Made by a program: the position numbers and the translations under genes
Notes under the pieces: model-generated
The model's input: the letters and a program-made list of their open reading frames with translations, nothing else
What the model was told of the DNA's origin: nothing
The model's database searches: none
Shown here: in pieces, positions 42,435-44,547 of the stretch
Layout of the letters: each line of letters opens with the position of its first letter
Numbering within the stretch: position 1 is the stretch's first letter
NCBI GenBank assembly: GCA_022813865.1
Contig: JALDZX010000048.1
Location: forward strand, 62,001-126,000
Origin: Xylographa opegraphella
Taxonomy: Eukaryota
Length of the DNA: 64,000 nt
Reading direction: 5' to 3'

Positions 42435-43540
42435 CTACATGCTCTCCGTTACCACATGCTTTGGCACCAGCAAACCGGGATCAGAAAGATTGAGCCTCCG
42501 CTCATCCGCCCAATTCTCGACTATGTCCCACTTGACGCACTCATGACTACTCCACATACTTGAGGTGGGTTTGTCGAATTCGTCGACCCATCGAAATGTC
42601 ATGATCGAGACGTCTGCTTTGCAGATCAGAGCCTCACGCAAGAACTCGATACAGTGCGCTTCGAACCGTTAATGTGAGGCGAAAGCATAGCAGTGAATGA
42701 TACCCACCGATGTGGAACTTTTGACGATTCTTTCTCTGATCATTCCACTCGGGATGATAGTAATCCAGGTGCATATACTGCTTGATCTGTTTCTGTTTGA
42801 ATCTTAATTTTATATTCGTGTATGGGTCATATGAAACAGTGGAACGTACTAGACAATGGAGCAAGTGGTATACACCAAGCTCAGCCACATAACCAGATCC
42901 ATCTGCGAGAGCAACAGATGTATGGTGATCGGTTTGTTGTACTTCTTCGGCGGAAACTCTGATTTGTGCATCTGTACCCAATTTGTTATCGAGAGACCAT
43001 AGGAGATCGAGCATGCGTCAAACGCAAATGAACTGACTCTGTAGAAGTTGCCGCCACGCCCCATCCACCTCAGGTCCTGGTTCACCCACAAAGGGATTGT
43101 TTTTGAAAGGAGAACCGAGCAGTTTTTTTTCGTACTCGATTAGTGGTGTAAGAGGAGCTGGATGGATTTCGGTCATTCCAGAGCTTGAACTGAGGACTAA
43201 TGATGACCAGTTACTTACAATATACAAGCTGTGGACGTTGATAAGTAGCACAGTCGCCATTGCTTGTCAACCAGAAAAATAAACCTATGTTAATCAAAAC
43301 GAGCAGGACATGCGGAATGAAGGCTAGAAGTGCTTTGAAATGCTTCTTCTCTACGTTCGCAACGTTTTCAATATGTGAGCAGAAACAAACATGTTGGTCG
43401 TCGGTTACCCGGTCAAAGGAGATATCCCTTTCGGTGTTTTTAAGAAAAGGCTGTCGTTTTTCATCGTCTTCAAGGTTGTCTGAAGACATACTCGAAGAGA
43501 TCAAACTCGAGCTGCTATTTGGGTGTGCAAGCTTCTTCAT
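42435..43540 (-). CDS. DUF3328 / UstYa-family oxidase (5 exons)
   Basis: Spliced product has an N-terminal TM anchor, LVYSP, FVGEPGPEVDGAWRQLL, LGVYHLLHCL (HxxHC-1), FHIAHCIEFLREALICKAD (HxxHC-2, split by an intron), TFRW and HECVKWD. Confidence 0.93.
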
Positions 43541-44261
43541 GGTGATGGTTGAACTGTAAAAAGAGGTGAATGACTTAAAGGAGACTTTCCAAAGACTATT
43601 TACAGCTGAGTGGAGCTCGGGGCCTCCAGAGACAGAATCAGGCAAATTCGCCGTACCTCCTCGGGCCGTCATTGGAGTAAGAGGCTCGAGCATTGTTTCG
43701 TACTATCAGGAGGCAAACATGTGCCTTCGATTGGGGTACACAATGTCGCCAGGTTGGTGCGGTAGTAAAGCGCTGTCGTTTTCGTTGCATACGGGCCGTT
43801 ATGCGGAAGGCGCCGATGACCTTATTGAACTCACATCACCGATTGGTGGCATCCCACAGGTACAATGACTACCTTATGCTAAACTACGGCAACAGTGGAG
43901 ACGGCTGCGGGCCGTATCGTACCTTAGCTGTAGACTACAAATTGACCTACGAGGCTAGTGATATCTTGCAGCGTGTCACACCAGCGCCGATCAAAGATTG
44001 GCTACAATAAACTCGAGCTTGAGAAGGATACAGCGGTAGTAATACCAAGGTGAGACTCTGAAACATTGCTTTATCCGTTTCTTCCTACACTGAGTAACTA
44101 GCATAGCGTCACATTGACATTAAAGAGTGTCCACTGTCCATCGAGCATTCCTCCTTGATCAAGTACTTTCCTGAGTCTACGTTCTAGGACTAGATCGTTA
44201 GTCACATTGACGTTAATGGGAACTAATGTTCCCAAGTAGTGCTGACTGAAGACTTACCACT

Positions 44262-44547
44262 CTAATAATTTTCGCTGCGTAGCCCTCCCGCATTCTTGAC
44301 AGCTCGGATCTTGACGCCAACATCGGGTACAGACTCTATGCCCCAGTCTTGCCAGCCGCCGGCGACTTCATCGTCCGCGTCGGATGTCTCTCGAACACTG
44401 ACACTGCCTACCGCTGAGATCTTGCGATTAGTCAAAGACGCTGGTTTAATAGTTGAAAAGTGACAATATTCTACCTTTTGGTATGGCTAATGCCTGCACG
44501 AAACCGCCCAGTACCAGCAAGTGGGACACAACCACTGACAAACGCAT
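44262..44547 (-). CDS. 74-aa secreted peptide; candidate RiPP precursor
   Basis: Exon 1 44547-44475, 61-nt intron (gtag...gactaat...ctcag), exon 2 44413-44262: MRLSVVVSHLLVLGGFVQALAIPKAVGSVSVRETSDADDEVAGGWQDWGIESVPDVGVKIRAVKNAGGLRSENY*. It has a signal peptide and lies next to, and co-oriented with, the DUF3328 gene. Confidence 0.72.

Follow-up and report, generated by a model that had tools for sequence, protein, structure and literature searches.

Two neighbouring genes on the minus strand of a 64,000-nucleotide stretch of Xylographa opegraphella contig JALDZX010000048.1 (positions 62,001 to 126,000; hereafter the window, in whose own numbering all coordinates are given) are the subject of this analysis. 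One encodes an oxidase of the UstYa/DUF3328 family; the other, lying upstream of it, encodes a protein of 74 residues with a signal-peptide-like N-terminus. An earlier note, made from the letters of the window, had proposed that the small protein is a single-core precursor modified by the oxidase, that is, a new fungal system for peptides made by ribosomes and then modified post-translationally (RiPPs). Judged by their sequences, the oxidase is an intact family member, and its small neighbour is a real gene that has been conserved. As to a relation between their products, two unlinked neighbours appear to us the most likely reading. The gene pair comprises the following features.

42435..43540, minus strand: UstYa/DUF3328 family gene, five exons, 290 residues (open spliced coding sequence and Pfam PF11807)
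43540-43219, 43157-43038, 42971-42850, 42792-42708 and 42658-42435 (including stop), minus strand: oxidase exons, 873 nt when joined
43274..43330, minus strand: predicted single membrane anchor, residues 71-89 (LLAFIPHVLLVLINIGLFF), the top hydrophobic 19-mer
42853..42867, minus strand: first HxxHC motif, HLLHC, residues 183-187, at the end of exon 3
42651..42714, minus strand: second HxxHC motif, HIAHC, residues 215-219, split by intron 4 (42707-42659)
43541..44261, minus strand: spacer between small-gene stop and oxidase ATG, 721 bp, which could be promoter or 3´ untranslated region (UTR)
44475..44547, minus strand: small gene exon 1, signal-peptide-like N-terminus (MRLSVVVSHLLVLGGFVQALA|IPK), ATG at 44547
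44414..44474, minus strand: small gene intron, 61 nt, with weak donor GTAGAA, branch-like CTAAT and acceptor CAG
44262..44413, minus strand: small gene exon 2, residues 25-74 and stop, codon score 0.178 bits per codon
44343..44390, minus strand: conserved acidic-Trp block of the peptide, residues 33-48 (ETSDADDEVAGGWQDW)

The oxidase gene bears out its description in the note as an intact five-exon DUF3328 gene with both HxxHC motifs. Its four introns measure 61, 66, 57 and 49 nt, their donors read GTAAGT, GTCAGT, GTACGT and GTGGGT, and every acceptor is AG. Pfam scans were run exon by exon, so that family membership is assigned on exons, with a cut-off of 25 bits for PF11807 (UstYa). Exon 5 alone scores 60.4 bits (E 3e-16) against the profile named in the note. 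Exons 2 and 3 give the weaker scores of 23.6 and 23.5 bits, exons 1 and 4 have no PF11807 match in this exon-wise scan, and a 127-residue read-through open reading frame (ORF) over exons 3 and 4 reaches 36.9 bits. Combined, these pieces cover profile positions 54-220 of 220.

The highest mean Kyte-Doolittle value of any 19-residue segment of the oxidase (2.43) falls on residues 71-89, which points to one N-terminal membrane helix followed by a lumenal C-terminal domain. This position of the anchor agrees with the cytosolic-N, lumenal-C layout of CctR, the cyclochlorotine hydroxylase, as given in the available passages of PMC12435403. DUF3328 enzymes were first shown in 2025 to be binuclear copper oxidases. 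According to the same passages, CctR forms homodimers that are anchored in the membrane and have a helical domain in the lumen; its paired HxxHC motifs bind two copper ions, and O2 as well as an electron donor is required. The cyclase AprY and the halogenase ApnU resemble it, activity as a disulfide-linked dimer being known for all three. In predicted architecture our oxidase matches CctR, for which a disordered N-terminal region, a single membrane helix, a helical domain on the lumenal side and the arrangement HxxHC(x)nHxxHC are described (PMC12435403). They differ in two respects. CctR acts on a non-ribosomal peptide and sits in a non-ribosomal peptide synthetase (NRPS) cluster, whereas neither NRPS nor polyketide synthase (PKS) was seen in the 64-kb window. 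Moreover, the monomers of CctR are bonded through Cys190 and Cys213 (PMC12435403), while the oxidase has only Cys229 and Cys257 after its motifs, the comparison being an unaligned one.

By homology to CctR, AprY and ApnU, the oxidase would be a type-II membrane protein whose C-terminal helical domain faces the lumen of Golgi or endosomes, dimerises and binds two copper ions through its paired HxxHC motifs. With O2 and an electron donor, the enzyme would attack a C-H bond of some peptide-like substrate within the secretory pathway and oxidise it. Since both the membrane helix and the two HxxHC motifs are present, the same chemistry as in CctR, i.e. a copper- and O2-dependent activity, can be inferred for the oxidase by analogy.

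Relatives of the oxidase were sought in two ways. In word-based searches of a collection of 5.8 billion proteins, none of 38 candidates scored with exon 5 as the query and none of 171 with the 127-residue ORF, and there was no self-hit, which is weak evidence; as neither query found itself, the oxidase seems to be absent from this collection. It may thus be unannotated publicly, whereas its 74-residue neighbour is present in the collection under a public name. A metagenome scan with exon 5 yielded six loci, four of which (L001-L004) are 36% identical to it, the remaining two (L005 and L006) matching over 12 residues only. One of the former, L003 (5490-6183, plus strand), has HQLYC in place of the first HxxHC motif; if the exon reading is right, this variant would lose one copper-ligand His.

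The small gene was described in the note as a hidden, spliced gene of 74 codons some 720 bp upstream of the oxidase. Splicing, strand and distance (721 bp) all hold, but the gene is not hidden. Its product is identical, residue for residue, to a hypothetical protein already annotated publicly for a lichen-forming fungus and found at 100% identity with exon 2 as the query. A HMMER search of 1.84 billion representative proteins, accepting E up to 0.001, returned two proteins, namely the window's own product (P0001) and a relative of 73 residues (P0002) with 58% identity (E 9.8e-16). The representatives are clusters at 50% identity, hence two rows do not equal two sequences.

Comparison with P0002 also bears on the gene structure. 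Its residues 1-24 align with 44547-44476 and residues 22-72 with 44420-44268, and it is colinear with the window only once the 61-nt intron at 44474-44414 is taken out; the public protein, too, is identical to the spliced model. Start, length and end of both proteins match to within one residue.

Could the small gene nevertheless be an annotation artefact or a non-functional ORF, leaving the oxidase as a stand-alone DUF3328 gene? Its donor GTAGAA is weak, having no G at +5. A crude filter for n-, h- and c-regions picks 47 signal-peptide-like ATG starts on both strands of the 64-kb window (about 0.7 per kb), because of which such a start alone is weak evidence. Relatives are scarce: P0002 is the single one among the 1.84 billion representatives, neither P0001 nor P0002 matched any Pfam family at E up to 10, the peptide had one match in the PDB (E 1.3), and the best score in the ESM Atlas was 0.84, a lead that establishes no relative. 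A scan of metagenome contigs with the peptide alignment likewise produced 341 pattern matches, 0 of them confirmed. On the other side stands P0002 itself, which at 58% identity has the start and the exon junction in common and the same length to within one residue. As far as a comparison of proteins can tell, one would not expect an unselected ORF of 222 nt to remain open at such divergence. Codon usage lies within the coding range as well: with a log-odds score of 0.112 bits per codon, the small gene ranks at the 36th percentile of 96 coding chunks, and its score is equalled or exceeded by 3.6% of 497 short ORFs. This score lends weak support only, since true membrane-protein exons nearby score near zero. 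On balance we regard an artefact as very improbable; taken as a whole, the small gene is, by its sequence, real and conserved beyond chance.

Splicing that would join the small gene to the oxidase in one reading frame was considered and rejected, all donors 3´ of exon 2 being located after the in-frame TAG. Right behind this TAG, at 44190-44257 (minus strand), the sequence reads like an intron (GTAAGT ... TGACTAAC ... TAG). The signal may represent a 3´UTR intron; it cannot extend the small ORF because the stop precedes the donor.

The two peptides are identical in 42 of 74 alignment columns, and conservation is distributed unevenly along them.

Residues 1-24, signal region: 18 of 24 identical in P0002
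Residues 25-32: 2 of 8 identical
Residues 33-48, acidic-Trp block: 11 of 16 identical
Residues 49-74, tail: 11 of 26 identical

The signal peptide predicted in the note is supported by this conservation and by the crude filter together with reading by eye: a basic start is followed by an uncharged hydrophobic run and by AxA at residues 19-21. The protein would thus probably be directed to the endoplasmic reticulum (ER) and cut after about Ala21. Such a cut leaves a predicted product of 53 residues, 9 of them acidic and 6 basic, that contains neither Cys nor a dibasic pair. The 74-residue protein has no internal repeats, and its mature part no KR or RR sites for Kex2. AlphaFold2, run on the alignment of the two sequences, modelled only a helix at residues 3-20, corresponding to the signal helix, with a mean pLDDT of 53.1; the mature peptide is accordingly predicted to be disordered.

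Within the mature peptide, the acidic-Trp block is the most conserved segment. The motif DADDEV-x3-W singled out in the note is found again in the sole relative, and ETSDADD, V41, G43, W45 and W48 are invariant between the two, giving the consensus ETSDADDxVxGxWxxW. There is no conserved Tyr, the sole one, Y74, being Ser in P0002. A further proposal, cleavage at VR| just before the core, is not borne out by the relative. The residue preceding ETSD is R32 in the window (VR|E) and Lys in P0002 (VK|E). Kex2 requires Arg at P1, and Kex2-type processing of the peptide is for this reason not supported.

The two products may be pictured as follows. Two real genes, transcribed separately, stand head to tail. 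The smaller would code for a lineage-restricted preprotein that is targeted to the ER and cut after about Ala21, and the released peptide of about 53 residues would be free of Cys, acidic and disordered, with invariant ETSDADD and then WxxW. That the oxidase acts on it is suggested solely by adjacency, the same strand and a common secretory-pathway topology.

We rate it most likely, at an about even chance, that the two genes are neighbours without any enzyme-substrate relation, the substrate of the oxidase being encoded elsewhere and the peptide being an independent small secreted protein. This reading is favoured because the peptide is without repeats, KR or RR sites and conserved Tyr and has R32 replaced by Lys in P0002, and because accessory genes were not seen and the genes around are housekeeping or unrelated ones. 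Our Pfam scans of the neighbourhood covered 41 large ORFs across the window and 94/96 ORFs of at least 45 residues at 38.5-42.4 and 44.6-47.7 kb; among the ORFs so scanned, there was no tyrosinase, methyltransferase, peptidase, reductase, second DUF3328 protein, NRPS or PKS. Base rates point the same way. Of 9399 DUF3328 genes, only 31.8% lie within 15 genes of a precursor of the Kex2-processed repeat protein (KEP) type (PMC7329392, in the passages available); the family also tailors non-ribosomal peptides (PMC12435403).

Several observations weigh against two unrelated neighbours. Besides the 74-residue protein, there is no candidate precursor within about 12 kb of the pair. Same-strand adjacency of a secreted-peptide gene and a lumenal peptide oxidase should be uncommon by chance (a few percent, by rough estimate). 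At a distance of about 5 kb there is an MFS gene. The acidic block followed by aromatics resembles the ED flank of UstA cores, and minimal clusters do exist, since asperipin-2a needs only aprA, aprY, aprR and aprT (both from passages of PMC6514808). Finally, when 111 lichen genomes were surveyed, many DUF3328 genes with HXXHC motifs came to light but no repeat precursors (Pasinato and Singh 2025, PMC12048977, as far as its accessible passages go); the explanations raised there are that the precursor has a single core or is encoded outside the cluster, and the genome list includes eight genomes of the genus publicly named for P0001.

These points lead to the alternative put forward in the note, in which the 74-residue protein is a single-core, Kex2-independent precursor oxidised by the adjacent DUF3328 enzyme, the pair being a two-gene dikaritin-like RiPP locus. 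After removal of its signal peptide, the precursor would meet the copper oxidase in the secretory lumen; ETSDADD would act as recognition sequence, and (E/Q)VxGxWxxW would be hydroxylated or cross-linked, possibly at a Trp. The product would then be trimmed by proteases or remain a modified small protein. This is consistent with the adjacency of the genes on one strand, with the intactness of the oxidase and with a real, signal-peptide-like peptide in which the acidic-Trp block is the best conserved portion of the mature part. Disorder of the peptide is what is predicted for it and what is seen in precursors, no repeat precursor lies nearby, and the single-core idea has already been raised for lichens.

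Set against it are again the missing repeats, dibasic sites and conserved Tyr, and the Lys found in P0002 at the proposed Arg cut site. Accessory genes were not seen either, yet they are not universal, the apr cluster being without most of them. A single-copy, Kex2-free UstYa substrate was not found in the literature searched, subscription papers lying outside it. tblastn of P0001 and P0002 on the metagenome loci gave a best E of 0.04 over 9 residues, and the four loci with 36%-identical DUF3328 genes carry no relative of the peptide, which is weak evidence at that distance. We therefore consider a substrate role of the peptide only a tentative possibility, with clearly less than an even chance. 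Its fuller version, a distinct two-gene RiPP sub-type in which a single-core precursor devoid of repeats and Kex2 sites is recognised through ETSDADD and is oxidised or cross-linked at GxWxxW by a lone binuclear-copper DUF3328 enzyme, is more doubtful still.

Comparison with characterised systems shows where the pair would belong. Close in layout is asperipin-2a of Aspergillus flavus, a minimal cluster (aprA, aprY, aprR, aprT) with a single DUF3328 enzyme and a secreted precursor encoded nearby (PMC6514808). However, AprA is a Kex2-processed repeat protein with the Tyr-rich core FYYTGY, while the peptide here is single-copy, has no KR and contains Trp instead of Tyr; further, no reductase is found close by, and of transporter genes the area has only the MFS gene at about 5 kb. 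The ustiloxin system (UstA; UstYa, UstYb and UstQ) likewise has DUF3328 enzymes with HxxHC, a precursor with signal peptide, and ED before an aromatic core (PMC6514808), but its 16 YAIG cores flanked by KR, its tyrosinase and methyltransferase and its two DUF3328 paralogues have no counterparts found here.

KEPs in general, too, are small and secreted, and the genes of these precursors show an enrichment beside DUF3328 genes that is strongest at the adjacent position (PMC7329392); they are, on the other hand, defined by repeats and KR sites, and the 74-residue peptide has neither. The tryptophan content of KEPs with and without a nearby DUF3328 gene did not differ (20.5% vs 24.5%; Umemura 2020, PMC7329392). 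The orphan DUF3328 loci of lichens (clans R1 and R2 and singletons; PMC12048977) share with our locus a Lecanoromycete host, HXXHC motifs and the lack of a repeat-type precursor. Clans R1 and R2 differ from it in being restricted to Parmeliaceae and accompanied by accessory genes, and the available passages of PMC12048977 name no candidate single-core peptide. As seen now, the locus has an orphan secreted peptide next to an enzyme of a known family; it would be a variant of the dikaritin kind if the link holds.

A further reading takes the peptide as a secreted signalling or symbiosis peptide, processed at a monobasic site by other proteases and having only a chromatin or regulatory neighbourhood in common with the oxidase. 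A basic residue before ETSD is indeed kept (R/K32), the peptide family is lineage-restricted, and the spacer contains a 16-nt direct repeat. This proposal overlaps, however, with the preferred reading of two unlinked neighbours, from which it differs solely in the assumed common regulation, and we hold it to be improbable.

To our knowledge, most of the DUF3328 family is without a known substrate, and we know of no genome mining for its peptide substrates that was not based on repeats and Kex2 sites. If the peptide were the substrate, this search rule for fungal RiPPs would change. The peptide would be the first Trp-centred, single-core substrate of the family and a template for the missing precursors of orphan DUF3328 genes in lichens. 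A Trp-based modification new to the family might be found, and the two-gene system would be small enough for one heterologous experiment. If the peptide is not the substrate, we are left with an ordinary orphan DUF3328 gene beside a lineage-specific small secreted protein. The locus is, in our view, a moderately interesting and cheaply testable lead and not a demonstrated system.

The direct repeat of the spacer consists of two 16-nt copies at 44108-44123 and 44201-44216 (GTCACATTGACATTAA and GTCACATTGACGTTAA, plus strand), 93 nt apart. The repeat may serve as a regulatory site or reflect a small duplication, and its flank has a related inverted copy at 45270-45284, upstream of the small gene.

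Beyond the pair, the Pfam families seen up to a distance of about 8 kb are limited to Sugar_tr, Fung_rhodopsin, GNAT and MFS_1.

37079-38867, minus strand: Sugar_tr transporter in pieces, three separate ORFs matching profile positions 60-153, 158-271 and 424-450
45.6-47.1 kb, plus strand: Fung_rhodopsin membrane protein, divergently oriented
47.6-48.7 kb: GNAT acetyltransferase
49.4-51.5 kb: MFS transporter (MFS_1), about 5 kb from the gene pair

The Sugar_tr pieces belong either to a multi-intron transporter gene or to a decaying one. Farther away, housekeeping genes are found, encoding a glycogen debranching enzyme, DAHP synthase, MutS, a ThiF-rhodanese protein and SLX9. Downstream of the oxidase, a segment of about 3.5 kb (38.9-42.4 kb) shows no Pfam match in ORFs of at least 45 residues and no clear codon signal; it holds long ORFs without family, e.g. 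at 41264-41800 (179 residues, minus strand). Between 30 and 56 kb there is no Kex2-repeat ORF or coding tandem repeat, and no tandem repeat longer than 37 nt.

Two minor observations concern the wider surroundings. A large gene at 33722-36441 (minus strand) contains a PigL_N domain, ankyrin repeats and weak TPR matches below Pfam cut-offs; its product resembles an NLR-like or pigment-cluster-type protein of fungi, without relation to the pair. The G+C content is 0.44-0.50 at 41500-44500, a region covering both genes, vs a window mean of 0.507, and rises to 0.56-0.62 at the GNAT gene.

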